Assembly: GCF_028368995.1 (NCBI RefSeq) | Contig: NZ_JAQNDL010000005.1 | Span: 320,001 to 384,000, forward strand | Direction: 5' to 3' | DNA: 64,000 nt | Origin: Nannocystis bainbridge | GTDB lineage: Bacteria > Myxococcota_A > Polyangia > Nannocystales > Nannocystaceae | Shown here: one piece after another, positions 1,213-64,000 of the stretch | Position numbering within the stretch: position 1 is the first letter of the stretch | Layout of the letters: each line of letters opens with the position of its first letter | Made by a program: the position numbers and the translations under genes | The notes under the pieces: model-generated | Databases searched by the model: none | What the model was told of the DNA's origin: nothing | Seen by the model: the letters and a program-made list of their open reading frames with translations, nothing else

Positions 1213-2874
1213 CTATCGAGGGTCCGCGACCGCGCGGAACAGCGGGCTGGCGACGAGGTCGACGAGCAGGCTCTGGACGCGGTGGCCGCTGGCGACGAAC
1301 CTGTCCTCGAGGACATCCAGCGCGGGCAGCTCGCCGAAGGTCTCGAGGTGGCCGAGGCCGCCGCGCACGAAGTTCTTGATCACGCAGGCCGCAGCCCGCC
1401 GATCGTCGACCAGCAGGGCCGCCAGCTCGCGCGCGCCGGCGAACCGGCCGAGGTCGTCGGTGCTGGCTTCGACGTCGATGGCGAGCCCCTGATCCTCGGT
1501 GCGGAAGCGGCCGAGGGCGTCGTAGTGCTCGAGGGTGAGGCCGAGCGGGTCCATGCCGCGGTGACAGCTGGCGCAGCTCTGGTCGGTCAGGTGCCGCTGC
1601 AGCCGCTGCTTCATGGTCTCCGGCTTATTTGGGTCGGCGGCCGGCAAGTGAGTGTCGACGCCGGGCGGCGGCGGCAAGATGATGTCGCACAGCAGGCGGG
1701 TGCGAATGAACTGACCGCGGCGGGTCGGCGAGGTCAGGCCAGGGTGGGCGAAGCGAGCCAGGAAGCTGGCGTGGCCGAGCAAGCCGGCGCGGCCCTGCGC
1801 CGCCGGCGAGGCGACGCGGTGAAAGCCCGGCCCGTCGGGCGCCGGCAGCCCGTAGAGCCCGGCCAGCGCGGCGTCGACGAAGGTGGTGTCGCTGTCGAAG
1901 AACCGGCGGATGTCGCCGTCCTCCTGCCATACGATCGCGTCGAGCAGATGCAGGGTCTCCTGCGCCATCGACCCGGCCAGCGCGGGCGAGAACTCCGGGA
2001 ACAGGTCGGCGCTCTTGGCCAGGGTCGGCAGGTCGCGCAGCAGCAGCAGCTCGCTGTAAAATTTGGTGAGGGTGGTCCGCGCCTCCGGTTGCTTCAGCAT
2101 CGCCGCGGCCGCGGCCCGCACCTGGGCCTCGGTCTCGAGCTCGCCGGCCTCGGCGGCGGCCAGCAAGGCGGCGTCCGGGGTGCGTCCGAGCAAGAAGAAC
2201 GACATGCGCGCGGCCAGCTCGAGCCCCGTGAGCCGCCGCCGCGCCGGGGCGTCGGAGTCGGGCTCGCCGAGCTCGAACAAATAGATGAAGTGCGGCGATT
2301 GCAGCAGCGCCATCAATTCGTATTCGAGGCCGACAGCGAACGAATCACCCCAGGCGCGGCCGTCCTCGGCGATCTGCACGAGCGCCGCGACCTCGCCGTC
2401 AGTCAGCGGCCGCCGCCAGGCCAGGCGCCCGAAATCGGCCGCCACGGCGGCGTAACAGGGCGAATCGGCGGTGGCATCATGGACGCACGGGACGAAGCTG
2501 GCGAGCCGCTCGCGATCGGCGACGGCGGCCAGAGCGACCGCTCGCGCGGAGGCCTCGCATTGTTCGATGGCGCTCGCCTGTAGCGCCAGCTCCGCCGCGC
2601 CGATGGCGTCGAACCCGTGCAGCGGATAATCCTCGGGGGGCGCAGCCGCGGCCGCCGCCTCGTCGCCGAGCAAGTAGCGGATCGAGCCGACGTATTGATG
2701 GCGCAGGAGGCGTCGCAGGCCGCCAGGGACCGGCGCGAACGAGTCCTCGTCGCCGCCGCCGGTGGTGCCGTCGATGGGCAGGTCGGTGCTCGCGTCGTCC
2801 GCGTCGCCCGGGCCCCTGCCCTCATTCGCCGGACATGCGAACAAGGTGAGACACGATGCGACAGCGATCGTCAT
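1213..2874 (-). CDS. DUF1592/DUF1588/DUF1595 family lipoprotein
   Basis: Motifs LRRLLRHQY, AWRRPLT, LLQSPHF, ELAARMSFFL, TSPTRRG and CASCH..MDPLG..LEHYDALGRFR. Lipobox LFAC after ATG 2874. Confidence 0.9.
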   Translation of the reverse strand: MTIAVASCLTLFACPANEGRGPGDADDASTDLPIDGTTGGGDEDSFAPVPGGLRRLLRHQYVGSIRYLLGDEAAAAAAPPEDYPLHGFDAIGAAELALQASAIEQCEASARAVALAAVADRERLASFVPCVHDATADSPCYAAVAADFGRLAWRRPLTDGEVAALVQIAEDGRAWGDSFAVGLEYELMALLQSPHFIYLFELGEPDSDAPARRRLTGLELAARMSFFLLGRTPDAALLAAAEAGELETEAQVRAAAAAMLKQPEARTTLTKFYSELLLLRDLPTLAKSADLFPEFSPALAGSMAQETLHLLDAIVWQEDGDIRRFFDSDTTFVDAALAGLYGLPAPDGPGFHRVASPAAQGRAGLLGHASFLARFAHPGLTSPTRRGQFIRTRLLCDIILPPPPGVDTHLPAADPNKPETMKQRLQRHLTDQSCASCHRGMDPLGLTLEHYDALGRFRTEDQGLAIDVEASTDDLGRFAGARELAALLVDDRRAAACVIKNFVRGGLGHLETFGELPALDVLEDRFVASGHRVQSLLVDLVASPLFRAVADPR

Positions 2875-3374
2875 CTCTCTTAAAAAATGATGGGTGAGCG
2901 ACCGCGACATCAGCGATTGCTATGAACGAGGTTTGTCGACCACGCGACGCGAACCGTCGACCAGATCACGCCGCCGCCAGCGCGACCCACGAGTGGCCCA
3001 ACCTGCCCCATTGTCGGCCCAAAACCCCTGGCGGCCGCAGCACCGCTGCGAGCGATGCTCGTGTCGATGCAGCCCATCGTCGCTAGCGCAGCGACGCTAC
3101 GCGTCGTTGCCGAGCATGCGGGCCGAACATCGCTCCGCGCTTCGTCGCGTCGCGCGCCCGGGCCGACTGTCGCCGAGACTCGACACGCGGTCGGAGGCGG
3201 ATTTCATCGCGAAGGTTTGCTCCCCCGCGGCGTCCGGGCTCCACTTTTGACCTGCCCACAAGAACAGGTCGACCGACGTGATCGGCTGCCGTCGCCGCTT
3301 CTCCTCGACATGGCTCTCTCGGCGGAGTTAGAGTCCGCGGCGTGCAGAGCGGTAGTTCGTCGAGCCAGCGGGAC

Positions 3375-4286
3375 ATGCGCGGACGCCTCGTTCACGGTGC
3401 GTTCTCCGCCGGCAGGTCGCTGCTCGCGTCGCGCACGGAGGTGCTCCTGGTGAACGCGTCCCTGCAGGTGCACGGCACGTGGCGGCCTGCCCAGGGCGAC
3501 GCCGTCTGTGCGATTGCGCTGAGCGAGAATGGAGAGCAGGCCGCCATTGCGACGGAGTCGGACCGCGTCGTCGTGTGGTCGACGCAGACGCTGACCGCAC
3601 GCGTGCTGCTCGAGGCGAACAGATCGCCCGAGGAGAAGCTGATGGCGGCGATGCTCGGTCAAGAGATAGACCTGCCCGCGGCGCAGCTCGCGGTGGCGAA
3701 CGATGGCGAGACGGTGGCGCTCGTGCGCGCCGGGGCGGGTGGCGCGTACACGCTGGAGCTGCTCGGACCAGCTCGGGCCAGGGTGGAAGTCGGGTCCATC
3801 GATCCCTGGACGCGCGTGTCGATGCACGAGGAGCTCGTCGTGCTGGGCCGCAGCGCGTACGCACGCGAAGACCTGGCACGGCTGCCCCTCGGCGAAGAGG
3901 TCTTCGCGCGGTCGAACGGCGTAAAGCTGGTCCGAACGAGCGAAGGCGAGATCGCGCTGCGTGCCGCGGACGCCACTACATCGCTCGGCGAATGGGATGA
4001 CGCGGGCTTTGCGTCCCACGAGGTCGTGCTGGTTCGACTTCGCCAGCACAAGGAAAGGGGTCCGCGCTCCCTGGAAGTGCAGCGCTGGCCGCTCGCCCCG
4101 GGCGTGATCGAGACGCGATCGATCCCGTGGGATGCGCCCGACAGGAGCGACCCTTTTGGCGAGCGCGCTCCACTCTGTGATTGCGCGAACCTTCGAGGCG
4201 TCGTCCATGCGGGCGAGGCCCACGCGTGGGTCGACCTGCGGACCGGTGAACGGATCGGCGACGTGGAAGCGCGCGATATGGATTGA
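3375..4286 (+). CDS. hypothetical protein (possible beta-propeller-like)
   Basis: GC3-biased ORF with beta-rich segments (AIALSENGEQAAIA, LAVANDGETVAL). Start is uncertain. Confidence 0.55.
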   Translation: MRGRLVHGAFSAGRSLLASRTEVLLVNASLQVHGTWRPAQGDAVCAIALSENGEQAAIATESDRVVVWSTQTLTARVLLEANRSPEEKLMAAMLGQEIDLPAAQLAVANDGETVALVRAGAGGAYTLELLGPARARVEVGSIDPWTRVSMHEELVVLGRSAYAREDLARLPLGEEVFARSNGVKLVRTSEGEIALRAADATTSLGEWDDAGFASHEVVLVRLRQHKERGPRSLEVQRWPLAPGVIETRSIPWDAPDRSDPFGERAPLCDCANLRGVVHAGEAHAWVDLRTGERIGDVEARDMD

Positions 4287-4367: not shown

Positions 4368-5111
4368 ATGGCCATCACCCGTCGCGCGCTCTCCAGCCAG
4401 GCCCTCGCCGTGCTCGCCACCGCCGGCCTGGCGCAGCTGCTGGTCTCGCCCGGCGTGCTCGCGGCGTCGGTGCGGCCGGCGCTCGGCGCCTGGCTGCGCG
4501 AGCTGGCGGAGATGACCCGGGCCCTGCGCGGGCGGCAGCTCGGCGCGCGCGAGTACCAGGGGCTGCTCGATGATCTGTGCGGCCGCGTCGAGCTGTCCGA
4601 CCTCCACGCGGCGATCGACCTCGAGGCCCTGAGGGCCCGCATGGCCGTGCCGGCGACCGGGGCCGGCAGCTGCGAGGTCGATTTTGCGGCCCTGGCCGGC
4701 GCTCCGACGCGTCTCGGCTTCGGCCGGCGGGTGTTCGCCTGCCGCCGCGGCCGCGCGATCGTCCCCCACGGCCACGACGACCTGTGCACCGCCTTCATCG
4801 TGCTCGCGGGGCGCTGGCGCGGCCGCCACTACGACCGGCTCGAGAGCCACGCCGATCACTTCGTGCTCCGCCCGACCATCGACCGCGCGTTCGCCCCCGG
4901 CGATAGCTCGAGCGTGTCCGACCACCGCGACAACGTCCACTGGTTCGAGGCCGAGACCGACGACGCGTTCGTGTTCAACGTGCACGTCGCCTGCGCCGGC
5001 GCCAGCGGCTCGCGGGTCTACCTCGACCCCGAGAGCGAACGCCTGGCGGGCGGGACGATCCGGGCCGCCAGGCTGAGCAAGGCCGCGTGCGTCGCCAAGT
5101 ACGGCGGCTGA
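4368..5111 (+). CDS. cupin/cysteine dioxygenase-like protein with possible Tat signal
   Basis: N-terminal ITRRAL followed by a hydrophobic stretch. Metal-ligand-like motifs IVPHGH and DNVHWF. Confidence 0.65.
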   Translation: MAITRRALSSQALAVLATAGLAQLLVSPGVLAASVRPALGAWLRELAEMTRALRGRQLGAREYQGLLDDLCGRVELSDLHAAIDLEALRARMAVPATGAGSCEVDFAALAGAPTRLGFGRRVFACRRGRAIVPHGHDDLCTAFIVLAGRWRGRHYDRLESHADHFVLRPTIDRAFAPGDSSSVSDHRDNVHWFEAETDDAFVFNVHVACAGASGSRVYLDPESERLAGGTIRAARLSKAACVAKYGG

Positions 5112-5213: not shown

Positions 5214-5297
5214 TGTCCGAATGAGCATGTCCGATCGGGCATGCCCCCTCGAACATGCCCTCTTGCGCATGCCCTTCAGGACATGCCCGGAGCGCCA
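5214..5297. repeat. tandem array of six degenerate 14-bp TGTCC-N4-GGACA units
   Basis: Contiguous units TGTCCGAATGAGCA, TGTCCGATCGGGCA, TGCCCCCTCGAACA, TGCCCTCTTGCGCA, TGCCCTTCAGGACA, TGCCCGGAGCGCCA. Confidence 0.85.
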
Positions 5298-6481
5298 GCC
5301 AGCAGCGCCGCCACCTCGTCTTGCCCGTTGAACTCGGCCCACTCGCGCGGCGTCGCCCCGTAGATCGCCTCGCGGGCGTCGACCGCGGCGCCGTGGTCGA
5401 CCAGCGCGCGCACCACCTCCGCGTGGCCGTGGCCGGCGGCCACGTGCAGGGGCGTCGGCAGGCCGGGGCCGGCGAGGCCGTCGACCGCGGCGCCGGCGGC
5501 CAGCAATGCGAGGACCGCGGCCGTGTGGCCCTCGCGCGCCGCCAGGTGCAGGGCCGTCACCTCGGCGGGCGTCTCGGCGAGCAGCCGGCGCGTACGCGCG
5601 TCGATCTCGACGCCGGCGCGCACCAGCACCTCGACCACCTCGGGTCGGCCGTTCTTGGCCGCCAGCGCCAACCACGAGGCCAGCAGCGCCGGCGGCTGCG
5701 GCCCGGCCTGCAGGCGCGCGGCCATCGTCGCCAGGTCGCCGGTGACCAGCGCCGTCGCCACGTCGTCGCCCGCCCCGAGCCCGCGCAGCAGCGCGATCTG
5801 GGCCGCGTCGCCGCGCGCCATCGCCAGCGCCAGCGGCGTGAGGCCGTCGTCGGTGGCCGCGTGCAGCTCGGCCCCGAGCTCGACCAGCAGCGTCAGCGAG
5901 TTCTTGAGCCCGCGCGCGACCGCCAGGTGCAGCGCCGTCATGCCCGCCGACACGAAGCCCATGCGCTGATGCACCGCGCCGGGGTCGGCCGCCACGGCCG
6001 CCCGGATCGCGTCGAGCCCGGACGGCAGCGCGGTGAAGATGTCTTCGCGGGCGCCGGCGGCCCGCAGCAGCCGCGCCACCGCTGGCCGATCCTGATGGCC
6101 CTGCGGCGCCCAGCGGACCACGACGGACCAGCCCAGCGGCGTGAGCGCGAACCACCCGTCGCGCGTCTCGAGCGCGGCGCCGTGGGCCAGCAGCAGCTCG
6201 GCGACCGCGGGCACTCCCATCTCGGCCGCCCAGTGCAGCGCCGTGGTGTCGCTGGCCGCCTCGCGCGCGTGCACGTCGGCGCCGGCCTGCAGCAGCGCGG
6301 CGACCACCGGCTGCTGCCCGCGGTGGGCGGCGAAGATCAGCGGCGTGCTGCCCAGCGACGGATCGCGGGCCCCCGCCAGCGCCGGCTCGGCCTGCACCTG
6401 GGCGACCGCGGCCGCGAGATCGCCGCGCTGGATGGCGTCGAACAGCGCGGACCCGGGAGACGGCTGGGGCGGGGCACTCAT
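5276..6481 (-). CDS. ankyrin repeat protein
   Basis: Multiple ankyrin motifs: GSTPLIFAAHRG, TTALHWAA, MTALHLAV, TPLHVAAGHGHAEVVRALVDHGA. Confidence 0.95.
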   Translation of the reverse strand: MSAPPQPSPGSALFDAIQRGDLAAAVAQVQAEPALAGARDPSLGSTPLIFAAHRGQQPVVAALLQAGADVHAREAASDTTALHWAAEMGVPAVAELLLAHGAALETRDGWFALTPLGWSVVVRWAPQGHQDRPAVARLLRAAGAREDIFTALPSGLDAIRAAVAADPGAVHQRMGFVSAGMTALHLAVARGLKNSLTLLVELGAELHAATDDGLTPLALAMARGDAAQIALLRGLGAGDDVATALVTGDLATMAARLQAGPQPPALLASWLALAAKNGRPEVVEVLVRAGVEIDARTRRLLAETPAEVTALHLAAREGHTAAVLALLAAGAAVDGLAGPGLPTPLHVAAGHGHAEVVRALVDHGAAVDAREAIYGATPREWAEFNGQDEVAALLAGAPGMS

Positions 6482-6645
6482 GCGGCGCCGAGGATCGCCC
6501 GGTTCACCGGCGGCGACAAGCCGCGGTCCCGCGCACGACCTGGCCTTCGGGACAGATCGAAGCGCGACCCGCGGCCGGCGCCGAGGAGCGTTCCGTCAAT
6601 CATCCTCGCCACTTGGCAAAAACGTTCAAAAAAGATCCGCCGCCG

Positions 6646-7565: not shown

Positions 7566-9218
<1,653 letters not shown>

Positions 9219-9446: not shown

Positions 9447-9721
9447 TGTCCTTCAGGACATCCGCGCCGGCGGCTGCCTCGACAGCCGGTCCCGAGAGAC
9501 AGGACCGGCGCGCCGCGGCGGACCGTCACCTGTCCCGTGGGACATCTTCTTCGTCGCGTGCCGCGAGCGCCGCCCGGCGATCGCGTCGCGGCCACCTGTC
9601 CCACGGCACATACGGCCGTCGCCATTACACTCGAGCCGTGTCCTCGAGGCCACCAAGCGAACGGGCCCGGATCTACCGGGCCCATCCGCCGCATCAGGCT
9701 CGTCACCTGTCCCGGAGGACA
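9447..9721. repeat. cluster of six TGTCC-N4-GGACA palindromes
   Basis: Copies at 9447, 9531 and 9708 are perfect. Copies at 9488, 9597 and 9639 have 1-2 mismatches. Confidence 0.85.
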
Positions 9722-9734: not shown

Positions 9735-10544
9735 TCACATGCAGCCCGGCACCCAGTCGGGGGGGCTGCAATCCTCGAAGCCCTGGAGAATGCAGCCGGA
9801 CGGCGCGTCCCAGGCCTTGTCGGGCTCGCCCACCTTGCAGACGACCGGGATGAACGGCGGGCACGCGCCGCCGTTGGCGATGCAGCCCAGGAAATCCTGG
9901 TTCCCGTAATCGGCGCACAGATCGCCGTCGACCTCGACGTGGGGCGCGCCGTAGATCGCCCGGCACTCGGAGGGCTCGTCCAGGCACTCGGCCTCGTCCA
10001 GCGACTCGCACGTATCGCAGTACACCAGCGCCGGCGCCTCGCAGGCCGTGAATCCGGCTGGCGCGCAGCCGGTGTCGACGAGGTCGTAGATCGCGTCGGT
10101 GCCGTCCTCGCAGAAGATCGTGCTGTTGTGCTCGCACTCCTGGGGCTCCGAGCAGCCGAGGAAGACCAGGCCCTCGCTGCAGCCGGGGAACTCGAGCGCC
10201 TTGCCGTGGTACGCCTGGCATCCGTAGGCCTCGCAGTCGGCCTCGCCGAGCTCGACGCACTCGGGCGGGATCGCCATGCCGGTGGTCGAAGTCTCGACCA
10301 GAGTCGTCTCCGACGGGTCGAACATCGTCGTCGCGGTCTGCCAGGGCTCTTCCGGCGCGTCGGTCGTCCCGCCGGTGGTGCCCACGCTGGACTCGCCGTC
10401 AGTGGCCGTCGGGTCGCCCGTGGTGCCGGACGAACCACTGTCGGTCGCCGAGAGGTTGCCGAGCTTGGTCGGCAGCTCGCACGCGGCCAGCGCGAGCGTG
10501 ATCGTGATCGTAAGGATGCGGGGGACGTAAGCGAAGTTGTTCAT
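9735..10544 (-). CDS. Cys-rich lipoprotein
   Basis: Lipobox LALAAC, Thr/Ser/Gly linker, two Cys-rich modules (CVELGEADC..FLGC and CESLDEAEC..FLGC). Confidence 0.85.
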   Translation of the reverse strand: MNNFAYVPRILTITITLALAACELPTKLGNLSATDSGSSGTTGDPTATDGESSVGTTGGTTDAPEEPWQTATTMFDPSETTLVETSTTGMAIPPECVELGEADCEAYGCQAYHGKALEFPGCSEGLVFLGCSEPQECEHNSTIFCEDGTDAIYDLVDTGCAPAGFTACEAPALVYCDTCESLDEAECLDEPSECRAIYGAPHVEVDGDLCADYGNQDFLGCIANGGACPPFIPVVCKVGEPDKAWDAPSGCILQGFEDCSPPDWVPGCM

Positions 10545-10586: not shown

Positions 10587-11870
10587 TCACTGCCCGCAGC
10601 GATTAAAATGGCCGAACCGCTGGGCCACCGCCGACGCCGGGAATGTGCGCACCAGCGATTGCGCCGCCGACAGCGCCGCGGGCTCGTCGCCGAGTCGGCA
10701 CAGCGCCTCGATGCGCGCCGCCTCGCGCACGTCCGCCAGCGCCCCGCCGGGGAACCGCTGCGCGTGCTCGGCCACCCCGGCCAGCGCCGCTGCCGGATCG
10801 CCGGCCGCCAGCTGCGCCTGCACGCGATCGATCGCCGCCACCTCCGCGGCCAGCCGCGCCCCCGCGTCGCTCGCCTCGGGCTTCGGCGCCTCCGCCTCGC
10901 TCGTCGCCCGCGGGCTCGCGGCGCTCTGGGAGGATGTCCCTTTGGACATGTCCTTCGGGACCTGCACCGGGATCACCGCCGGCGCGGCGATCGGCGCCGG
11001 CGTCGGCGCGGCCGCGAGGACCGGGCCCGGCTGCTTCGCCGCCACGACCGGCGCGCTGGCCACGGACGGGCGCTCGGCCGCGCGGGCCGGCGCGCGCGCG
11101 ACCACCAGCCCGATGGTCGCCGCTCCGGCCACGATCATCGTCGTCGCCGCCGCCGTCTGCGAAGTCACCCACGCCGCCAGCCCGACCTTCGCCGCGCTCT
11201 TGCCGAACATCGGCAGCATCAGGCCCCACGTGCGCGACTCGGCCTCGCGCGGCGGCGCCTGGCGCTGGCGGGAGGCGTCGCGCAGCGAATCGAGGCGACC
11301 GCCGATCACCAGCGCCTGCAGCTGCTGCCGCGCCAGTCGCAGCCGCGAATACACCGTATTGACCGGCAGCCCCAGCTCCGACGCGATCTCCGGCGCGCTC
11401 ATCCCCAGCAGCTCCGTCATCTCCCACACCGTGCGGTTGCCGTCGGCCAGCTCGCCGAGCACGCGCGTCAGCAGCTGGGCGTCGTCGTGGCGCTGCTGCG
11501 GCGCCGCGGCCTGCGGGCGGGCCAGCTCGGCGAACGCCGCGTGGCGCCGGGCCAGGCGCGCGGCCCCGCGGCGGTGGCGGAACGCGACCCGGCGGGTCAC
11601 CCCGAACAGCCAGGCCCGCGGCGACACCTCGAAATGCAGCTCCTCGAGCCGGCGGTACGCGGTCAAGAACACCTCCTGGACCACGTCGTCGACCGTGCCG
11701 CCCGGCACGCCGAAGTGCTGGGCCGCCGACCACACGAACGCGAATTCGGCGCGATACAGCGCCTGAAAGCGTCGCAGGTGGGGTTCGTCCTCGTGAGCGG
11801 TTTCGCGCGGGGTCATCGCCGGTCCGGCTGGTGCCCACGATTCTCCGGCCTGCCGGCGATCCGTCACCAT
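10587..11870 (-). CDS. ECF sigma factor with long C-terminal extension (TM plus TPR-like)
   Basis: Sigma2 DDVVQEVFL..RAWLFGV and sigma4 MSAPEIASELGLPVNTVYSRLRLARQQL, then hydrophobic IVAGAATIGLVV and a helical HAQRFPGGALADVREAARIEALC tail. Start is 11870 (coupled to the upstream stop) or 11816. Confidence 0.85.
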   Translation of the reverse strand: MVTDRRQAGESWAPAGPAMTPRETAHEDEPHLRRFQALYRAEFAFVWSAAQHFGVPGGTVDDVVQEVFLTAYRRLEELHFEVSPRAWLFGVTRRVAFRHRRGAARLARRHAAFAELARPQAAAPQQRHDDAQLLTRVLGELADGNRTVWEMTELLGMSAPEIASELGLPVNTVYSRLRLARQQLQALVIGGRLDSLRDASRQRQAPPREAESRTWGLMLPMFGKSAAKVGLAAWVTSQTAAATTMIVAGAATIGLVVARAPARAAERPSVASAPVVAAKQPGPVLAAAPTPAPIAAPAVIPVQVPKDMSKGTSSQSAASPRATSEAEAPKPEASDAGARLAAEVAAIDRVQAQLAAGDPAAALAGVAEHAQRFPGGALADVREAARIEALCRLGDEPAALSAAQSLVRTFPASAVAQRFGHFNRCGQ

Positions 11871-13017: not shown

Positions 13018-13476
13018 ATGAACCTCGAAGCCTGGCTGCAGCCCCTGATCTGGCTCGCCGGCGTCGGCCAGATCGCCCTCGCGCTCGCCTCGCTGGCGAT
13101 CCCGCGGCAGCTCGGCTGGCGACTCAAGCTGGCCGGCATGTCGCCGCTGCTCCGGCAGATGTTCTGGGTCTACGCCGCCTACATCCTCGGCACCAACCTC
13201 GCATTCGGCCTGGTGTCCGCGCTGGCGCCCGCGAGCCTGCTCGACGGCAGCCCGCTGGCCGCCGCGGTGTGCACATTCATCGCCATCTATTGGCTGTCGC
13301 GGGTCGTCGTGCAATGGACCTACTTCGACCTGACCGAGCTGCCGCGCTCGCGCTTCAACACCTTCGCGCGCGTCTCGCTCGAGCTCGCGTTCGTGGCCCT
13401 GACCGTCGTCTACGCCGCGGCCGCGTACACCAATGGCTGCGCTCCCCGGGCCGACTTCCATGCCGATCGCCGTTGA
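13018..13476 (+). CDS. hypothetical integral membrane protein
   Basis: About four TM helices, motifs LLRQMFWVYAAYI and YWLSRVVVQW. Overlaps the MBOAT gene. Confidence 0.8.
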   Translation: MNLEAWLQPLIWLAGVGQIALALASLAIPRQLGWRLKLAGMSPLLRQMFWVYAAYILGTNLAFGLVSALAPASLLDGSPLAAAVCTFIAIYWLSRVVVQWTYFDLTELPRSRFNTFARVSLELAFVALTVVYAAAAYTNGCAPRADFHADRR

Positions 13477-14413
13477 CGTGGCGCTCGCCGTCACCGGCGC
13501 GGCGCTGAGCGGGGTGCTCGCCGTCGGCTTCGTGCTGCCGCGATTGCGCGATCGGGCGGCCGCCCGCGCGCTCGCGTGGACGAACGTGCTCACCGGCCTC
13601 GTCGCCGTCCTGCTCGCCTGCGTCGCCGCGCCGGCCGGCTTTCGCATGTTTGCGATCTGCGGCGTGGTCCTGTTCGCCATGAAGGGCGTGGTCGCCGTCG
13701 AGGAGCGCCACGCCCACGATCGCCGGCTCGATCCGCTCGCGTGGATCGGCTGGGCCGCGGCGTGGCCCGGCATGCGCCCCGACCTGTTCGCCGCCCTCCC
13801 GTGGCGCCCGTTGCCCGGCGCCGGCGCGCTGCTGCGCAAGGGCGCGATCCGCCTCGGCGTCGGCGTCCTGTGCCTGCTCGCCGCGCGCCTCGTATTCCCC
13901 CGCTCCGAGCTGCTCGCCGCCGCCCTGGCCCTGCCCGGCCTCAGCCTGGTGCTCCACTTCGGCCTCTTCAACCTGCTCGCCGGCGCCTGGCGCCTGGTCG
14001 GCGTCCCCGCGTATTCGCTGTTCGACCACCCGCTCGCTGCTCGCGGCCTGTCCGAGTTCTGGGGCCGCCGCTGGAACCTCCCCTTCACCGAGATGACGCA
14101 GCGCGCCGTCTATCGCCCGCTGCTGCCCGCGCTCGGCCGCGACCGCGCCGCCGTGCTCGCGTTCGCCTTCTCGGGCCTGCTCCACGAGGTGGCCATCAGC
14201 CTCCCGGTCCGCGCCGGCTTCGGCGGGCCGATGCTGTACTTCCTGCTCCACGGCGGCGCCACCCGCCTGGAGCCGCGCCTGCGCCCCGCCTTCGCGCGCC
14301 GCCCGTGGCTGGCCCACGCCTGGACCGTCGGGTGGTTGGTGCTGCCGATGCCGCTGCTGTTCCACCCGCCGTTCCTCCGCGGCGTGGTCTGGCCATTGCT
14401 CGGCCTCGCGTGA
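13460..14413 (+). CDS. MBOAT_2 / wax synthase family O-acyltransferase
   Basis: Motifs PLAARGLSEFWGRRWN and FAFSGLLHE (catalytic His). Confidence 0.9.
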   Translation: MPIAVDVALAVTGAALSGVLAVGFVLPRLRDRAAARALAWTNVLTGLVAVLLACVAAPAGFRMFAICGVVLFAMKGVVAVEERHAHDRRLDPLAWIGWAAAWPGMRPDLFAALPWRPLPGAGALLRKGAIRLGVGVLCLLAARLVFPRSELLAAALALPGLSLVLHFGLFNLLAGAWRLVGVPAYSLFDHPLAARGLSEFWGRRWNLPFTEMTQRAVYRPLLPALGRDRAAVLAFAFSGLLHEVAISLPVRAGFGGPMLYFLLHGGATRLEPRLRPAFARRPWLAHAWTVGWLVLPMPLLFHPPFLRGVVWPLLGLA

Positions 14414-14433: not shown

Positions 14434-14475
14434 TGTCCCATTCGACATGTTTATAAAAACATGTCCTTACGGCCA
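14434..14475. repeat. three tandem 14-bp palindromic units
   Basis: TGTCCCATTCGACA, TGTTTATAAAAACA, TGTCCTTACGGCCA, contiguous. Confidence 0.8.
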
Positions 14476-19460: not shown

Positions 19461-19483
19461 CGCCGCGTGCGGCATCATCCAGC

Positions 19484-20090
19484 GTGCCGGCCTCCCCCTC
19501 TGCGGCGTCGGCCGGACTGGCCGCATGGGACGTCGCGGCCCGCCACCTCGTCGACGACGACCCGGCGGCGGCGGCGGCTGTCCTTTCGGACATGCCCGCG
19601 ACCACGGCGCGCGAGCACGCGATCCGGCTGGTCATCCTCGAGCGCCTCGGCGACCTCGCGGGGCTCGAGCGAGCCGCCGGGCCCGCCGCAGCGGTCTTGC
19701 TCGACCCGGCGGCGCGGGCCGACCTCGCCGTCCTCGTGCGCACCCGCCCGCTCGTCGCGGCCGCCCTGGTCGGCGCCTGCGCGCCGCTGCTGCCCGCGCT
19801 GGTCGACGTGTGGTCCGGGCTGCGCGCTCACCTCGGCGACGGTGAGGTCCGCCGGGCCGCGCTCGCCGGGCTGCACGCGCTCGCCCCGGCGGCCCCGACC
19901 GGCCCCGAAGACCACGCGGCGCTGGCCCGGTTGCTGGCGCTGCGCGGGCTGCTGGCGGCCTCCGAGGGCCGGAGCGCCCCGGCGATCCGCGACCTCGAGG
20001 CGGCGCTCGAGCGGGTCAGCCCGGACCTCGACGAGGACGAGGAGCTCGCCGAGATCCACGCGCCACGCTCGCGCGCCTGCTGGCCCCGGA
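19484..20090 (+). pseudogene. helical TPR-like protein fragment
   Basis: Strong GC3 bias and Ala/Leu-rich helices up to EELAEIHA, after which the frame loses coding character. Both ends look truncated. Confidence 0.5.
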
Positions 20091-25329: not shown

Positions 25330-28300
25330 TCAACGCGGCTCGCTGGCCGCGAGCAGGCCCTCGGGCGTGGCCGGCAGCCGCACCGCGCCGATGGGCGCGC
25401 CGATCACGATCGCGTCCTCGCTGTCGGCGGTGAACGCCAGCTCCACCGGCGTCCCGCCGTGCAGCCGCGCGATCGTCCCGGCGAACGCGCCGTCGTGCGC
25501 CGACCACAGGCCGACCTCGCCGCGCTGATCGGCGATCAGAATCTTCGAGCCGTCAGGCGAGAACACCGCCGATCGCCGCACCCAGTTGCGCCGCCCCTCG
25601 AGCTGCACGCTCGGCGAGAGGTCGTCGGCCCGCCACAGCCGCGCCGCGCCGCTGTCGTCGAGCCCGAGGATCGCGCTGTCGTCCGGCGAGTACTTCGCCG
25701 ATACGATCCGCGCCGCATTGCCGCGCAGCTCGGCCAGCACCTCGCCGGTGCGCGCGTCCCAGACCTTCGCGTCGCCGCGGCTCCCGTGGGCGAACATCTG
25801 CGCGCCGTCGTGAGCCCCCGCGATGCCCGAGAGCTCGCTGCGGAGCCCGTCGAACTGCACGCTCGCGCGCGTCCACGGATCGAGCAGCTCGAACCGCGTG
25901 GTCCACCCGGGGATCACGAGCTGCCCGATCGCCGTGCCCTCGATGCGGCCGTAGGGCAGGTTCGGCCGCCGCAGCGTGTGCAGGCCGCGGCAATCCGCCG
26001 TCGACCACAGGTGCAATGCGCTCTCCGTGTCGACGGTCACCACCGCCTCGGCGTGCGGCAGGAACACCGGCCGCTGCCACATCTCGAGCGTGGTCGGCAG
26101 CGCGCAGCGCAGCGCACCCGTGTCGGCGTCCCACAGCTCGGCGGCGCCGGCGGGCGAGGCCGCGAGCAGCGTGCCGGCGCCCGACAGCACCAGCTTCGCC
26201 ACGTCGTTGGTCGCCTCCGCCGCGAGCAGGGCCCCGTCGGTCACGCGATGCACCGTCACCACCCCGTCGCCGGCCATCGCCAGGCGGTCGCCGGCGACAT
26301 CGATGTCCATCGCCACCGGCGCCCGGGCCACGCGCCAGCGCGCCGGCACGGCCAGCGGCAGCTCCCACACCAGCGTCGGCCCGGCCGCCGTGCCCGCGAG
26401 CAGCTGGCCGCCGTCCGGCGAAAACTGCAGCGACATCACGTCGTCGTACGCGGCCCGCAGCGTCGCCCGCAGCGCCCCGGTCGCGACCTCCCACACCCGC
26501 ACCGTGCCGTCGCCGGCCCCGAGCGCCAGCCACCGCTCGTCGGGTGACAGCGCCGCGGCCCCGTAGTGCGCGACCTCGCCGTCGACGCGCCGGATCATCC
26601 GCCCGTCCTCGGGCGCCCACGCGAACCACGCCCCGTCCATGATGACCGAGATCAGCGTCTCGCCGTCGCCGGTGAACAGCAGCTGCTGCGGCGAGAACGT
26701 CGGCCCGACCGCGCGCTTGACCAGCTTCGGCGCCGCGCCGCCCACGTCCCACATGTAAATGTCCATGTCGTTGCCGGCGACCGCGACGCGCTCGCCGTCG
26801 CCCGAGATCGCCAGCGCCGTGTACATGCGCGCCGACGTCGGCAGGTCGCCCAGCTTGCGGCCGTCGGGCAACGACCACAACCACGCGTAACCGTTGTCGC
26901 CGGTGACGATCCGCGAATTGTCGCGCGAGAACGCGGCCGCGTGGGCCCTCTGCGGCAGCGCGGCGATCAGCGCCCCGGTGCTCGCGTCGCGCACGCGCAG
27001 CTCGCCCTCGGCCAGCGCGGCGATCCGGGTCCGATCGGGCGACATCGCGATCAATTGCTGCTCGTCGCCGAGCCGCGCCGTGATCGCCCCGCTGCGCACG
27101 TCGCGGCGCACCAGCCCGTCCTCGCCGGCGGTGACCAGCGCCCCGTCGGCCGCGACGTCGGCCCCGGCCACCCCCTCCAGCTCGACCAGCCGCTGCCCGC
27201 TGCCCGCGTCCCACAGCCGCAGCGTCCTGCCCTCGACCAGCGTCAGCACGACCTCGCCGCCCGCCGCCCAGCGCGCGTGGTTGACGTAGCGCCCGTCGAC
27301 CGCGCCGTACTGCATCACCACCCGCGGCGCCATCAGCGTCGCCGCCAGCGCCCGGCTGGCCGCCGCGATCGGGCCGCCGGTGCGCAGCGCCTCGCCCGCG
27401 GCCGCCCGCGCGATCGCCCGCGCGGCGTCCGTTCGATCTGTCTCTTCGGACATGTCCTGCGCGCGCAGGATCGACGCCTGCAGCCGCTGGGCGTCGACCA
27501 CCGCCTGGCGCTCGAACGCGCTGCGCTCCGCCTTGTCGGCCTGGGCCGCCGCCTCGCGCTCGGCCTGCTCGGTCTGCGCCCGCGCCTCGGCCCGCGTGCG
27601 CGCCTGCTCGTAGCCCAGCCAGGCCAGCGCCACCCCGCCCGCGAGCGCCAGCCGCAGCCCCGCCACCGCCACCCGGTGCGAGCGGGCCCACAGGCGGGCC
27701 CGCTCGCGCAGCGAGTACGCGTGGGCCGCCACCATCTGCCCGGCCTGGAACCGCCGCAGCTCCTCGGCGAACGCGGCCGCGTCCGGGTAGCGATCGGTCG
27801 GCGCGCGGGCCATGGCCCGGTGGGCGATGGTCGCCAGCTCGCCCGGGATCGCCGGATCGACGCCCCGCAGATCGCTCGGGTGGCCGGCCAGCACCTGCGC
27901 CGCCAGCCCCGTCCCCGTCACCGCCGCGAACGGCGGCTGCCCGGCCAGCACGTGATACAGGATCGCCCCCAGCGCGTACACGTCGGAGCGCACATCGACC
28001 ACCTCGCCGGCCGCCTGCTCCGGCGGCATGTAGCGCAGCGTCCCCAGCACCGTGCCCGCCTGCGTCATGTCCGAAGTGCCATGGTCCAAAGGACCTGCTC
28101 CATCGGACATCTCATTTTCGACCGCCGTCAGGTCCTTGGCCAGGCCCCAGTCGATCACCACCGTCTCGCCGAAGCGACCGACCAGCACGTTGGCCGGCTT
28201 GAGGTCGCGGTGCAGCACCTTCTGCGCGTGCGCGTAGGCGATCGCGTCGGCCACCGCGATCACGTGCTCGACCAGCCGCAGCCGCTGCGGCAGCGTCGTC

Positions 28301-37853: not shown

Positions 37854-38798
37854 ATGGCCGCAAGCGACAGGTCGAACGAAGAGCTCACCGCCGAGGTGGA
37901 GGCGCTTCGGCGGCAGGTGGAGGAGCTCGAGGTCGACGCGCGGCGGTACCGGGCGATGGTCGACAATGTCGCCCTCAGCGTCCAGGTCTGCGACGCCGCC
38001 GGTCGCGTCGTCGAGGTCAACCGCGGCTTCGAGCGGCTGTGGCACCTCTCGCTCGCCGCCGTGCACGGCCACGTCATCCTCGAGGACAAGCAGCTCGAGC
38101 CGTCCGGCAGCCTGCGCGGCGTTCGCCACGCCTACGCCACCGGCGAGGCCACCCGGCTGCCCGCCATTCGCTACGATCCGCGGCACACCGAGGGCGTCTC
38201 CGACGGCTCTGCGGGGTGGGTCGCCTCCTCGATCTACCCCGTGCGCGACGACGCCGGCCGGCTCGTCGAGGCCGTGATCATGCACTACGAGATCGGCGAG
38301 CTGAAGCGCAGCGAGGAGGAGCTGCGGATCCAGAACGAGGCGCTCGAGGCCGCGGTCGCCGCCCGCACGGCCGAGCTGTCCGAGCACCTGCGCCTGCTCC
38401 ACGCCCAGCAGCAGTCGCTGCGCGAGCTCTCCACGCCGGTGATCCGCCTGTGGCCGGGGATCCTCGCGCTGCCGCTGATCGGGGTGATCGACGCCGCCCG
38501 GGCGACGCAGATCATGGAGAACCTGCTCTCGGCGATCGTCCATCACCGCGCCTCGCAGGTCCTGCTCGACGTCACCGGCGTGCCCGTCATCGACGCGGAG
38601 GTCGCCGCCCACCTGTGCCAGACCGTCGGCGCCGCGGCGCTGCTCGGCGTGCGCTGCATCCTCGTCGGCATCTCGCCGACCATGGCGCAGACCCTCGTCG
38701 AGCTCGACCTCGACCTCACGCGCCTGGCCACCGCCGCGAGCCTGGAAGACGGCCTCCGACAGGCGCTCGCGCAGCGCAGCCCGACCCCCCGCGGCTGA
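37854..38798 (+). CDS. PAS-STAS (RsbR-like) protein
   Basis: PAS DAAGRVVEVN...PVRDDAG, STAS ELSTPVIRLWPGILALPLIGVID...LDVTGV...GISPTMAQTL. Confidence 0.92.
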   Translation: MAASDRSNEELTAEVEALRRQVEELEVDARRYRAMVDNVALSVQVCDAAGRVVEVNRGFERLWHLSLAAVHGHVILEDKQLEPSGSLRGVRHAYATGEATRLPAIRYDPRHTEGVSDGSAGWVASSIYPVRDDAGRLVEAVIMHYEIGELKRSEEELRIQNEALEAAVAARTAELSEHLRLLHAQQQSLRELSTPVIRLWPGILALPLIGVIDAARATQIMENLLSAIVHHRASQVLLDVTGVPVIDAEVAAHLCQTVGAAALLGVRCILVGISPTMAQTLVELDLDLTRLATAASLEDGLRQALAQRSPTPRG

Positions 38799-59582: not shown

Positions 59583-60167
59583 TCACCGCTTGCGATCCGG
59601 CGCCAGCGGGTCCTCCCCCCATTCGGGCTCGAACTGCCCGCCGAGCCCGTCCACCAGCCGATTGTAATAGTTGAAAAGCGCCGTGATCTGCACGATTTGG
59701 TGGATCGCCACGTCGTCGAACCCGTGCTCCCGCAGCCCCGCGATCTGCCGCTCACCGATCGCCTTGCTGTCCCGCGTCAACGCCACTGCCACGTCGATCA
59801 TCGCCCGGTCGGCCGGCGACAGCGCGGCGTGGTCCGGGTCGCGCTCGAGCGCGTCGGCGATCGCGTGGACATCTGGTTGTGCCTCGACCTCGGCCCGGAG
59901 GTCGTCGCTGTGCGCGCGCGTTCAATACACGCACTTGTTGGTGCGGGACACCGCGACCGCGATCATCTCGCGCTGGGCCCGTGACAGCGGCCCGGGGCCG
60001 AACATCAGTTCGCGGTACAGGTCGAGCGACGCCTGCAGGACGCGCGGCTGCACGCTCTGGATCCGCAGCACGTGGAAGATCTTGCCGGCGCGCGCCAGCG
60101 CGGCGCGGTAGATCCGCGCCAGGAGGCCGTCTGCGTGGTCGGGGTCGACGATACGGATCCATGCCAT
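59583..60167 (-). CDS. AhpD/CMD-like peroxidase-related selenoprotein (in-frame TGA = Sec, CxxU)
   Basis: ORFs 59922..60167 and 59583..59801 are in frame. Read-through gives LSRAQREMIAVAVSRTNKCVY-U-TRAHSDDL...LREHGFDD...FNYYNRLVDGLG, 194 aa. Confidence 0.9.
59885..59904 (-). promoter_or_regulatory. bacterial SECIS hairpin candidate
   Basis: mRNA CGACCUC-CGGGCC-GAGGUCG, a 7-bp stem with a G-containing loop starting 25 nt after UGA. Confidence 0.65.
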
Positions 60168-60271
60168 GCCGGCACTGTACCGCGAACGCCGCCCTGCCGG
60201 ACAGGTGCACGCCCTCTCGGCCCCTCGCTATCCTCTGCCCTCGCGCCGGCCAACCGGGCTATCCTCCGCCG

Positions 60272-61117
60272 GTGCGCCTCGCCTGGGCGACCGACATCCA
60301 CCTCGATTTCCTCGACGACGAGCAGGTGCGGCGGTTCGCCGCCGAGCTCGCCGCGCCGCGGGCCGACGCGCTCGTGCTGAGCGGCGACCTCTCGCACGCC
60401 GAGACCCTCGAGCACCACCTGCGCCTGCTCGCGCAGGGCGTGCCCGGGCCGATCTACTTCGTCCTCGGCAACCACGACTACTACGGCAGCTCCGTCGCCG
60501 CCGTGCGGACCGCCGTGCTCGACCTCGGGGCACGCCGACCGCGGCTCTCCTGGCTGCCGGCCGCTGGCGTCGTGCGCCTGACCGATCGCACGGGTCTGAT
60601 CGGCTGCGACGGCTGGGCCGACGCGCGGATCGGCAACCCCGCGACCACGCCCGTCGTGCTCAACGATTTCTTCCACATCGAGGAGCTGGCCGACACCCTC
60701 GATCCGGCCGCGCGCGCCGACCCGCGGCAGTTCTTCCGCGGCAGCGACCGCGGCCGCTTGCACGCCGAGCTGCGGGCCCGCGGCGACGCCGAGGCCGCCA
60801 CCTTGCGCCCGCTCCTGCGCGACGCCCTGCACGAGTTCGAGGCCGTCGTCGTCGTCACCCACGTGCCCCCGTTCGCCGAGGCGTGCTGGCACGACGGCCG
60901 CCACTCCGACGGCGACTGGCAGCCCTACTTCACCTGCGCCGCCGTCGGCGACGTCCTGCGCGACGCCGCCGCGGCCTGGCCTGGCCGCCAGATCACCGTC
61001 CTGTGCGGCCACACCCACGGCGCCGGCGAGGCGCGGATCCTCGCTAACCTCAGCGTGCTCACCGGCGCGGCCGAGTACCGCCGCCCGGCCCTCCAGCGCG
61101 TGATCGACGTCGCCTGA
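60272..61117 (+). CDS. calcineurin-like metallophosphoesterase
   Basis: ATDIH, SGD, LGNHD, THVPP, CGHTH. Confidence 0.93.
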   Translation: MRLAWATDIHLDFLDDEQVRRFAAELAAPRADALVLSGDLSHAETLEHHLRLLAQGVPGPIYFVLGNHDYYGSSVAAVRTAVLDLGARRPRLSWLPAAGVVRLTDRTGLIGCDGWADARIGNPATTPVVLNDFFHIEELADTLDPAARADPRQFFRGSDRGRLHAELRARGDAEAATLRPLLRDALHEFEAVVVVTHVPPFAEACWHDGRHSDGDWQPYFTCAAVGDVLRDAAAAWPGRQITVLCGHTHGAGEARILANLSVLTGAAEYRRPALQRVIDVA

Positions 61118-61120
61118 TGC

Positions 61121-61295
61121 GACATGTCCCTCGGGACATGTCCACGCTCACCGATCCTGCCGCCGTGCTGCGGCGATAGACATGTCCTTCGAGACATGTC
61201 CGAGATCACCGCTCGATCTCCCCGCCTCAGCGGCTTACTCGAAGCCTCTACATGTCCTTCGGGCCATCGACATGCCCCTCAGGACATGTCCCGGG

Positions 61296-61301
<6 letters not shown>
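61121..61301. repeat. three 33-bp direct repeats built on the TGTCC-N4-GGACA unit
   Basis: GACATGTCCCTCGGGACATGTCCACGCTCACCG (61121), GACATGTCCTTCGAGACATGTCCGAGATCACCG (61179), GACATGCCCCTCAGGACATGTCCCGGGTCATCG (61269). Extra unit at 61253. Confidence 0.85.
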
Positions 61302-62342
<1,041 letters not shown>

Positions 62343-62630: not shown

Positions 62631-63674
62631 TCAGGGGTGACCGAGGTCGGCGTAGGCGTTCCGCGACACCCGCATGTAGTTGGTCGGCGAGTGGTCGCCC
62701 CACGAGAACGTCATCGGCGGCGACATCGACAGGTACAGCGCGTCCTTGGCACAGGCCAGCGCCCCGATCACGTTCGCCGTCAGCCGCGCCCGCAGCTCGC
62801 GGTCGAGCCGCATCTCGTCGACCCATACGCCGTCGCGGCTCGTCGACACCAGCTGGCGACCGAAGTGCATGTAGCGCCCGACCGAGCGCGGCGGCATCTT
62901 CGTGACGTAATCGTTCTCGTACATGAAGCGATACGTCTTGTCGCCGAACTGTTTTTCGAGGGTCCTGGCGAGCGTCGGGTCGGCGAACATCGCCGGGCCG
63001 TAGGCGTACAGCCCGCGCACCAGCTTGCGCATGGGCGCGAACTTCGGGTCGATATAGATACCGGCCGTCGCCATACCGGCGAGCGAGCCGCCCGTGCTGT
63101 GCCCGGTGATGTAGAGCGCCTCGAGCGTCGGCTTCTTCTTGCCGATCTGCTCGACCTCGCTCTCGGGCCGCTTCCCCGGCTTCTTCGGGGACAGCTCGAC
63201 CAGCCGCTTGCCGAGCGGCTTGCCCGTGTACAACGCTGCCAGGAATTCGCGCAGGGTCGGCCACAGGGCCATGCCGCTGCGATAGAGCCCGCCGTGCGCC
63301 GAACCGACCGACGGGAACGGCACCATCGTGCCCCGCGGATCGGTGAGCCAGCGGATGATGTCGTCCTGCTCCACGCCGCGGAGCGTCAGGATCCCGAGCT
63401 TCTTGTCGGCGCTCTGGAACAGGTAGGCCGCCGCGTCGACGAGCACCGCGTCGTTGCGCACGCGGACGCCGACGACCTCGCCGTCGAGGCCCAGCTGACA
63501 CAGCCGGTCGGTGTACGTCGTCAGGCCGCCGTACGACCAGGCCGACGCGATCGACAGCACCTCCACGACGCCGTGGTCGTATTGACCCTCGTCGACGCCG
63601 TCGATCAGATGTTCCGCCAGATCGCCCTTCTTCTTGGTCCCCGGGCACTTCGTGAATGCATGTTCGAGCCGCAT
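62631..63674 (-). CDS. class 3 lipase family alpha/beta hydrolase
   Basis: ILTLRG, AHGGL, LYITGHSTGG, YAYGP, DYVTKMP, DHS..NY. Confidence 0.88.
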   Translation of the reverse strand: MRLEHAFTKCPGTKKKGDLAEHLIDGVDEGQYDHGVVEVLSIASAWSYGGLTTYTDRLCQLGLDGEVVGVRVRNDAVLVDAAAYLFQSADKKLGILTLRGVEQDDIIRWLTDPRGTMVPFPSVGSAHGGLYRSGMALWPTLREFLAALYTGKPLGKRLVELSPKKPGKRPESEVEQIGKKKPTLEALYITGHSTGGSLAGMATAGIYIDPKFAPMRKLVRGLYAYGPAMFADPTLARTLEKQFGDKTYRFMYENDYVTKMPPRSVGRYMHFGRQLVSTSRDGVWVDEMRLDRELRARLTANVIGALACAKDALYLSMSPPMTFSWGDHSPTNYMRVSRNAYADLGHP

Positions 63675-64000
63675 GTCTCGCCTCCGATCCGGGTATTGGG
63701 CTCCGGACTCGACCGAGGTTCATGGATCGACCGGATCGCGGTGCAACGATAAAAAGCGCGTCATGTCGGCCGCGCCGCCCGCGGTTCACATTCGAGCCAG
63801 GCGTCGCTCGCAATGGCCGTATCGGGCCGAGATTCGCTATGGGCCGCGCGCGAGCGCCCGGGTCACGCGACCGCCTGCGCGGCGGCCGGGACGGCGACCT
63901 CGATCGCGCACGCGGGGCGAGTCAGGCGCCTATGTCGAATGTCCCTTGGGACAGCTATGAACATGCGCTTTCGGTCAGCCAGCGCTCGCCGCGTCGACCA

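Follow-up and report, generated by a model that had tools for sequence, protein, structure and literature searches.

The window studied here is the whole stretch of 64,000 nucleotides analysed from Nannocystis bainbridge. It corresponds to G000:C5:320001-384000, where G000 is the genome (11.05 Mb in five contigs, 71.5% GC, 90.5% complete by marker genes). The element in question is a 14-bp interrupted palindrome, TGTCC-N4-GGACA. Six genes of the window could be typed by Pfam and encode a PSD/PSCyt (DUF1585-1595) protein (1213-2874), an ankyrin-repeat protein (5276-6481), a Ser/Thr kinase (7566-9218), an ECF sigma factor with a long C-terminal extension (10587-11816), a FIST protein (30817-31929) and a PAS-STAS protein (37854-38798). 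None of the six is DNA-binding save the sigma factor, and the small genes adjoining window sites are not DNA-binding by Pfam. Copies of the palindrome are found in the window at the following positions.

1302-1315: perfect copy inside the coding sequence (CDS) 1213-2874 (minus strand), in the PSD2 domain of a DUF1592-family protein, where it reads D-V-L-E-D-R.
5214-5297: array of six units in a 14-bp register between the convergent genes 4368-5111 (plus strand) and 5276-6481 (minus strand, ankyrin repeats); its final units overlap the stop of the ankyrin gene.
6541-6554: solo copy with one mismatch, TGGCC...GGACA, between divergently transcribed genes, some 60 nt upstream of the start of the ankyrin gene.
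7979-7992: perfect copy in the C-terminal region of the Ser/Thr kinase gene 7566-9218 (minus strand), reading P-V-P-E-D-R.
9447-9721: cluster of six solo copies, perfect at 9447, 9531 and 9708, with one mismatch at 9597 and 9639 and two at 9488; it begins 14 nt downstream of the stop of gene 9735-10544 (minus strand).
10935-10962: two abutting units, one perfect and one (10949) with one mismatch, in the predicted open reading frame (ORF) 10587-11816 (minus strand), downstream of the ECF sigma domains.
14434-14475: two units with one mismatch each, 28 bp apart and in register, 21 nt past the stop of gene 13460-14413 (plus strand).
19579-19592: perfect copy in a weak predicted ORF, 19475-20059, with no Pfam match and of uncertain coding status.
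27439-27452: copy with one mismatch inside the long gene 25330-28734 (minus strand).
32187-32322: cluster of four copies past the stop of gene 32363-32971 (minus strand), of which 32187 and 32225 are perfect and 32263 and 32309 have one mismatch each.
33039-33052: solo copy with one mismatch in a divergent intergenic region.
37637-37650: perfect solo copy between tandem genes, about 175 nt past the stop of gene 34361-37462 (plus strand).
61125-61286: four copies, perfect at 61125 and with one mismatch at 61183, 61253 and 61273, filling the convergent intergenic region between genes 60272-61117 (plus strand) and 61296-62321 (minus strand).
63940-63953: perfect solo copy, some 22 nt past the stop of a gene (minus strand) that begins beyond 63975.
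12389, 12403, 28068, 28096, 39367, 39571, 49506 and 57307: further sites with two mismatches or fewer.

The 12 perfect copies in the window compare with a mean of 0.02 and a maximum of 1 in dinucleotide shuffles (n = 100). They lie at the 12 coordinates reported by a first-pass annotation made from the letters alone, and nearly all the degenerate copies named there are recovered when two mismatches are allowed. At that threshold there are 57 matches (12 perfect, 21 with one mismatch and 24 with two) against 24.9 +/- 4.7 expected, a number reached in none of the 100 shuffles. The annotation also held that the spacer is always 4 nt and that the signal is chromosome-wide, and both statements stand. 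Spacers of N3 and N5 give no match in the window, and in the whole genome there are 1987 perfect N4 copies as compared with 0-16 for each of the other spacers, N0-N3 and N5-N12. The window density, 12 per 64 kb, equals the genome mean, and every contig carries sites (39-176 per 200 kb), although their spread is less even than Poisson. With up to one mismatch the genome has 6245 sites vs 272 for the N5 control. Sites with exactly one mismatch number 4258, so that imperfect stems are twice as frequent as perfect ones, and two-mismatch sites number 7530 vs 4617 in the N5 control. No publication on the motif was found in the open-access literature, as judged by titles and abstract openings.

The longest stretches without a near-consensus copy measure 25-44 kb, e.g., G000:C2:741506-785869, G000:C1:1140698-1167575 and G000:C5:560068-590249. 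Most have a GC content of 0.66-0.70 and codon scores below that of the genome, an exception being C2:2106446-2131117, where the codon score is high. The site-free stretches of low GC and low codon score are probably acquired islands.

The full site is about 20 bp long and mirror-symmetric, RCM-TGTCC-YYRR-GGACA-KGY. Solo perfect sites (n = 1315) have the flanks R-C-M on the left and K-G-Y on the right, which refines the flank tendency, A-n-(C/A)...(G/T)-n-T, noted in the first-pass annotation; their spacers prefer Y-Y-R-R. The commonest spacer accounts for only 5% of copies. Position 3/12 of the core is loose, and any base is tolerated there on either side.

Units often abut head to tail, as follows from the 956 genomic occurrences of the decamer GGACATGTCC and the 1321 occurrences of TGTCC-N9-TGTCC plus its complement. 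Loci were seeded on sites with up to one mismatch and extended in 14-bp steps. This procedure gives 5446 loci, 2182 of which hold at least two units. The numbers of loci with one to nine units are 3264, 1140, 495, 163, 209, 130, 33, 10 and 2, with a secondary peak at 5-6 units, and arrays of up to nine units keep the exact 14-bp register. Spacers differ between the units of one array, and the arrays are therefore not recent duplications, although tandem copies of 14 or 42 bp are seen in a few. Where four or more units are arrayed, conservation is highest at the junction bases (C13 0.98, A14 0.90, T1 0.91 and G2 0.96).

Placement was assessed against 8089 genes covering 84% of the genome, which were predicted by our own crude codon-usage caller and are not a curated annotation. 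The perfect copies comprise 1176 in intergenic DNA, 16 across a gene end and 795 inside predicted genes. Sites with up to one mismatch occur at 4.98 per kb in convergent intergenic regions, 1.82 in co-directional ones, 0.60 in divergent ones and 0.28 in CDS. Within co-directional regions, sites follow the upstream stop by a median of 69 nt and precede the next start by a median of 196 nt. Convergent regions of 50-500 bp carry a site in 54-68% of cases. When a 20-bp position weight matrix is used and each region is compared with its own shuffles, the 95th percentile is exceeded by 69% of the convergent regions, 37% of the co-directional ones and 22% of the divergent ones. In the window, the copies at 9708, 14434, 32309 and 63940 lie 14-41 nt past stop codons. 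The earlier view that copies bear no relation to genes is thus wrong in one respect, since there is a strong bias to gene 3' ends and to convergent intergenic regions. Genes with a site downstream have a codon score of about 0.40 vs 0.37, in all eight bins; we read this difference as one of native vs foreign or spurious genes and not as an expression signal.

Enrichment inside genes survives a codon-aware null, the check proposed at the outset. Synonymous-codon shuffles within genes (n = 10) yield 19-33 copies with a mean of 26, about 30-fold fewer than the 795 observed. In the 2568 long genes with a strong codon signal there are 274 copies vs 3-10 (mean 6.0) under the same shuffles. The pressure thus acts at the DNA level even inside genes. 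Genic copies are found in 592 of the 8089 genes, and 485 of these hold a single copy. The preferred frame is xxT-GTC-Cnn-nnG-GAC-Axx (456 copies), which reads as [P/H/A/D]-V-[P/L]-x-D-[S/M/I/R] and makes a rare NNT codon unavoidable before GTC. Disorder-prone contexts with abundant P, E, S, A, G, T and Q are over-represented (29% vs 11%), although the majority of copies are in ordinary sequence. C-P-x-G-Q/H is the peptide of all 64 frame-0 copies, which reflect, at least in part, a cysteine-repeat peptide.

A few repeat-rich proteins hold 10-17 near-consensus copies. Two loci, G000:C2:2066053-2070511 (minus strand) and G000:C5:658300-661411 (plus strand), encode large proteins with long disordered, repeat-rich segments. 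In both, the motif with up to one mismatch is present 16-17 times within 1.5 kb, as A-V-P-A-D-S-Q or P-V-P-E-D-S repeats, and it appears to have been amplified along with the intragenic repeats. Two other genes, G000:C2:2310941-2311903 and G000:C4:227912-229825, code for repeat proteins rich in cysteine, whose C-P-x-G-Q-Y-C peptides correspond to frame-0 copies of the motif. Such copies are shared with the sister genus g4, and these genes may represent the one genic class where the peptide motif itself explains the DNA motif.

Conservation of the window was assessed for positions ~1-34,000, the part that is syntenic with five other Nannocystis species (79-88% DNA identity in genes). Collinearity ends near 34,000; beyond it one short block, 59585-61143, was matched in one species. 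The perfect genic site at 1302 keeps all ten specified bases in three of the five species and has one mismatch in the other two, while its spacer varies. In each of the five species the intergenic region corresponding to that of 5214 holds an array, with differing spacers and unit numbers, and a copy of site 6541 with no more than two mismatches is kept in all five. Sites 6541, 7979 and 9447 are kept across species while their flanks diverge.

Local alignment of individual intergenic sites passed only 12 site-species pairs because these regions are too diverged, and it was replaced by counts per orthologous intergenic region. The region of 9447-9721 has 7, 4, 7 and 1 copies in the four species where it could be mapped, and that of 32187-32322 has 1, 2 and 1 copies in three. 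All four mappable orthologous regions that have sites in G000 keep sites (up to two mismatches) in other species, and all nine mappable regions lacking sites in G000 lack them in every species; both samples are small.

The motif is carried by all ten other genomes of the genus (114-2090 copies). Its density is 120-160 per Mb in five other large Nannocystis genomes (120-180 per Mb in the six large genomes overall); in five others, which are smaller, more distant or fragmented, it is 25-105 per Mb. Two sister genera of the same family, g2 and g4, have 87 and 161 copies, respectively, vs 10 and 1 for reversed-pattern controls, which corresponds to densities of 10 per Mb (g2) and 19 per Mb (g4). 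The other 28 sampled genera have 0-8 copies and a further 400 Myxococcota genomes have 0-18. Enrichment is therefore confined to Nannocystis and these two sister genera. No other dominant palindrome of the 5-Nx-5 type was found in the sister genera, in 200 kb of G011 and 159 kb of G013.

In G013, which represents genus g4, only solo sites were seen, no array being present at the 15 loci scanned for neighbouring copies. Ten g4 sites lie outside long ORFs. Convergent ORFs border four of them, three at 16-90 nt from the stops and one at about 260 nt from both, and three more are 15-150 nt past a stop. Comparison of G013 with G000 covered 34 site entries, of which 13 aligned within a tblastx coding match. 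At these 13 places G000 has four perfect copies, two with one mismatch, one with two mismatches and six with three or more. Two of the six conserved G013-G000 sites are cysteine-repeat peptides, and in these two cases paralogy and peptide constraint may contribute. The sites near G013:C6 21687 and G013:C13 60374 share more than 20 bp of identical flank in opposite orientation, and this identity marks a duplicated segment carrying the motif.

An inverted repeat may be conserved as a hairpin in RNA or single-stranded DNA or as a sequence read in the duplex, and several comparisons bear on the distinction. Variants that preserve pairing are at background, i.e., TGACC/GGTCA has 25 copies (N5 control 26) and TGGCC/GGCCA has 78 (N5 control 77), as compared with 1987 for the consensus. 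Mirrored double variants number 596, which is not above the sum of 305 predicted from independent halves and 265 from the N5 background. The earlier impression that variants often remain symmetric is not borne out by these counts. Watson-Crick covariation is absent from the mirrored flanks (640/599, 438/529 and 510/525 observed/expected pairs) and from the outer spacer pair (398 observed vs 471 expected). Among 1143 one-mismatch sites of co-directional intergenic regions, oriented by the direction of transcription, there is no preference for G·U pairs in the RNA sense (C5>T 144 vs G10>A 149; C4>T 51 vs G11>A 40). No polarity is seen in the arrays: the difference in mismatches, left half minus right half, has a variance of 10.2 vs 9.7 expected. 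The spacers of mirrored units are not complementary (1.08-1.15 of 4 bases matching vs 1.03-1.15 in controls), with the exception of three-unit arrays (495 loci), where the outer spacers have 1.40 matching bases vs 1.03 in controls.

The 3' side of the core has no T run (T frequency 0.10-0.24 at +17 to +25), and no Rfam family reaches the gathering score within the window. A Rho-independent terminator was rejected on the 5-bp stem, the lack of a T run and the twofold excess of one-mismatch over perfect stems. The middle pair of this short stem is freely broken and stays broken across species, as at site 6541, which makes a maintained hairpin unlikely. The independent halves, the lack of compensation, of G·U preference and of spacer complementarity together point to bases read as duplex DNA sequence by something with two-fold symmetry, such as a symmetric dimer, and to no maintained hairpin.

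Candidates for the reader were sought by profile. The Y1/RAYT transposase domain (PF01797) has no match in G000, and its control was positive in 6 of 14 reference genomes. A Noc-like second ParB was rejected on the single G000 match to PF02195 (ParB_N), and Vsr and C5 DNA methylase were rejected with no match each in G000. The p53-type domain has no match in G000, and its control was also without a match in any reference genome; the mTERF domain has no match either, with a control that matched only below the family cut-off. These two negatives therefore carry little weight, and that for p53 is uninformative. The ORFs adjoining G013 sites gave no lead to a reader. The profiles N6_N4_Mtase and N6_Mtase have 12 and 10 matches, respectively, in G000. 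Two N4/N6 methylases with native codon usage were profiled across genomes, G000:C4:183778-185052 and G000:C1:2127487-2128422. Their close orthologues (85-93% identity) occur only in five large Nannocystis genomes, and both were rejected as the reader because they are not found in five other Nannocystis genomes, g2 and g4, all of which bear the motif. PF01555 has four further strong matches in G000 beyond the methylases profiled. One of the two methylases has a 60%-identical paralogue in G000 and in the same five genomes.

The reading we prefer, at about an even chance, is that TGTCC-N4-GGACA represents the core of a ~20-bp site for a lineage-specific homodimeric DNA-binding protein that acts mainly at gene ends. 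A sequence-specific homodimer of the Nannocystis lineage would read the site on double-stranded DNA. With abutting units there would be one dimer per 14 bp, or 1.33 helical turns, so that three units would span four turns, every third dimer would lie on the same face of the helix, and a co-operative array could coat 30-125 bp. Sites would be maintained by selection or by a selection-like bias and would be concentrated just past stop codons, above all between convergent genes. The likeliest job suggested by this placement would be at gene ends, as a boundary, a roadblock or a topological element comparable to repetitive extragenic palindromes (REP) and bacterial interspersed mosaic elements (BIME). 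The genic copies, at their lower density, would sit where the encoded protein tolerates them. The counts establish the abundance, spacer specificity, register, placement, symmetry without covariation, conservation and taxonomic range of the motif, while binding by a protein, its dimeric state, co-operativity on arrays and any role at gene ends are inferred. The first-pass annotation had proposed an abundant dimeric or polymerising protein. The independent halves, the mirrored flanks and the 14-bp register fit this proposal, but none of the candidates tested as binder was supported. Its suggestion of a role in nucleoid occlusion or segregation has no support; there is a single ParB_N gene, and the sites are not regional.

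A more specific form of the preferred reading seems rather unlikely to us. A polymerising protein on 14-bp-register arrays at the ends of most convergent transcription units would form a protein-based boundary. This could be a roadblock terminator, a supercoil barrier or an insulator, a bacterial counterpart of DNA-bound terminators of the mTERF/Reb1 type, and the thousands of extra sites would shape the nucleoid.

Several results weigh against a protein-bound gene-end site. Every candidate tested as the binding protein failed. About 40% of perfect copies are in predicted CDS, and a job at gene ends leaves them unexplained. The stepwise fall in density across the lineage and the low-GC, motif-free stretches fit slow accumulation by a genome-wide bias equally well. 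Full complementarity between the first and third spacers is seen in 7.5% of the three-unit arrays vs 1.8% in controls, and in a minority of arrays a longer hairpin might enclose the middle unit. The array at 5214 folds with -39.9 kcal/mol and is more stable than its shuffles (z = -2.83), as is inevitable for palindromes in a row. A structural role is conceivable for a subset of arrays.

The chief rival, which we also hold to be doubtful, is molecular drive. The motif would be recognised by an uptake, recombination, repair or self/non-self machinery and would have spread by biased fixation wherever it is tolerated; its placement would mirror weak constraint, and single sites would have no local function. 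Drive would suit the presence of copies in 592 of 8089 genes, their frame bias, which follows codon usage, their excess in disorder-prone contexts (29% vs 11%) and a genic abundance 30-46-fold above synonymous shuffles. The order of densities, convergent > tandem > divergent > CDS, mirrors falling tolerance, the density falls stepwise across the lineage, and motif-free islands of 25-44 kb, mostly of low GC and low codon score, are as expected of recently acquired DNA. However, drive does not predict the exact 14-bp register with differing spacers or the peak at 5-6 units. In g4, where the copy number is low (161), 7 of the 10 sites outside long ORFs are already past stops or between convergent ORFs. 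Repair-type drive would lack both a Vsr protein and a C5 methylase, and no uptake sequence is known to be a fixed-spacer palindrome.

We consider it improbable that the copies are hairpins of the REP/BIME type, functioning in RNA or single-stranded DNA as terminators, mRNA stabilisers or REPIN-like replicators and spread or maintained by a dedicated transposase. Such elements would share the extragenic bias, the preference for 3' ends and convergent regions, the clustered arrays, the genus-specific sequence and the thousands of copies. The fold of the 5214 array (z = -2.83) and the excess complementarity of outer spacers in three-unit arrays also speak for them. The genome has no Y1/RAYT transposase, however, and the stem is only 5 bp, with a mid-stem mismatch that is common and, at 6541, conserved across species. 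Compensatory changes, G·U preference and flank covariation are all lacking, the bases after the core are not T-rich, and the window has no Rfam match. The spacers and flanks are too diverse for copy-and-paste spread, and about 40% of perfect copies are in CDS, one of them in a Pfam domain.

A modification mark, i.e., the target of an orphan N4/N6 methyltransferase or of a system derived from restriction-modification, is less probable still, with only a slim chance of being correct. A 5-N4-5 interrupted palindrome is a typical type II recognition geometry, and the genome has matches to N6_N4_Mtase (12) and N6_Mtase (10). Restriction targets are usually avoided and not enriched, however, and neither a C5 methylase nor Vsr is present. 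The two profiled methylases do not track the distribution of the motif, and the register arrays would be unexplained.

A by-product of coding or compositional constraint (V-P-x-D-S and C-P-x-G-Q-Y-C peptides, GC-rich codons) can account for the C-P-x-G-Q/H peptide of all 64 frame-0 copies and for V-[P/L]-x-D in repeat-rich proteins, but is refuted as a general explanation, and carries almost no weight with us, since 1176 of the 1987 perfect copies are outside predicted genes, shuffles that keep protein and codon usage give 26 copies vs 795, N3 and N5 spacers are at background and 400 other Myxococcota have 0-18 copies.

About two thirds of the boundaries between convergent genes are marked by the motif, which has at least 6000 near-consensus sites and is kept across species and into sister genera; this places it among the strongest sequence signals of these 11-13 Mb genomes. 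If it is bound by a protein, the phylum, in which CdbA is the only characterised example, would gain a new system that binds DNA chromosome-wide and with high sequence specificity, and this would be directly testable as several Nannocystis strains are in culture. As a marker of transcription-unit ends, the motif would bear on how transcription is terminated or insulated in GC-rich bacteria that lack canonical terminators; as a drive signal, it would add a new class, that of interrupted palindromes, to the uptake or self-recognition sequences. In practice, native DNA can be told from acquired DNA by the motif, which also assists in defining where operons end in Nannocystis genomes, and these are mined for natural products.

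The nearest known kinds of element are REP/BIME by distribution and, by abundance in both genes and intergenic DNA, the highly iterated palindrome HIP1 and the uptake sequences; the motif fails defining features of each of these. REP/BIME and REPIN-RAYT elements are likewise lineage-specific short palindromes in hundreds to thousands of copies, with a bias to 3' ends and convergent regions, arrays and persistence at orthologous loci. REP units are ~20-40 bp, whereas the Nannocystis unit is 14-20 bp with a potential stem of 5 bp and no detectable pairing constraint; unlike REP, it is arrayed head to tail in a 14-bp register, has ~40% of perfect copies in CDS and has no RAYT gene. HIP1 of cyanobacteria, GCGATCGC, is also a palindrome over-represented in and between genes by a DNA-level pressure, and its function is unsettled. 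It is a contiguous 8-mer, whereas the Nannocystis motif is a 5-N4-5 palindrome with register arrays and a 3'-end bias in a genome lacking a C5 methylase. The DNA uptake sequence (DUS) of Neisseria and the uptake signal sequence (USS) of Pasteurellaceae are similar in forming lineage dialects of ~0.2-0.6 sites per kb that occupy tolerant parts of genes with a frame bias and are frequently placed after genes. DUS and USS are 9-12-mers without symmetry and yield terminators only where two copies stand inverted at a variable spacing, while the Nannocystis unit is itself an inverted pair with exactly 4 bp between the halves and occurs in register arrays.

Other sites resemble the motif in structure. 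parS, the Noc-binding site (NBS), the SlmA-binding site (SBS) and matS are 12-16-bp palindromes read by dimers, often genic and conserved between species. They have tens of copies with a regional distribution, whereas the Nannocystis motif has thousands of copies chromosome-wide and the genome has no second ParB-family gene. MetJ metboxes, omega heptads and ParR/TubR centromeres consist of abutting units without a linker, and in the Nannocystis arrays neighbouring dimers would likewise touch. Those arrays occupy a few operator or centromere loci per replicon as compared with 2182 multi-unit loci in Nannocystis, and by analogy they offer a model for how the 14-bp register arrays might be bound. 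CRP/FNR operators are alike only in the 5-N4-5 geometry, as in the FNR box.

CdbA sites are myxobacterial, GC-rich and bound with sequence specificity by a nucleoid-associated protein, as described in PMC7156744, which gives more than 500 sites, intergenic and genic, with little effect on transcription. CdbA is an RHH tetramer. Its G000 orthologue has 69 amino acids and matches the solved M. xanthus protein (PDB 6sbw_A) with E = 2.6e-26 over residues 1-65, and its N-terminal DNA-contacting strand is the same as in that protein. The CdbA motif of Myxococcus xanthus is described as a direct repeat separated by 4 bp, and CdbA orthologues are reported in all sequenced Myxococcales (PMC7156744), whereas the motif studied here is an inverted repeat enriched in Nannocystis and two sister genera. 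CdbA was rejected as the reader because its contacting strand is unchanged, its site is a direct repeat and the motif is at background in the 400 other Myxococcota. The CdbA gene is located at positions 1362-1571 (minus strand) of G000:C3:1085501-1088500, upstream of an alpha/beta-hydrolase-like ORF. An array at positions 373-456 of the same stretch, scored as eight units of nearly identical copies, follows the stop of this ORF. The proximity of gene and array may be a coincidence, as arrays are common.

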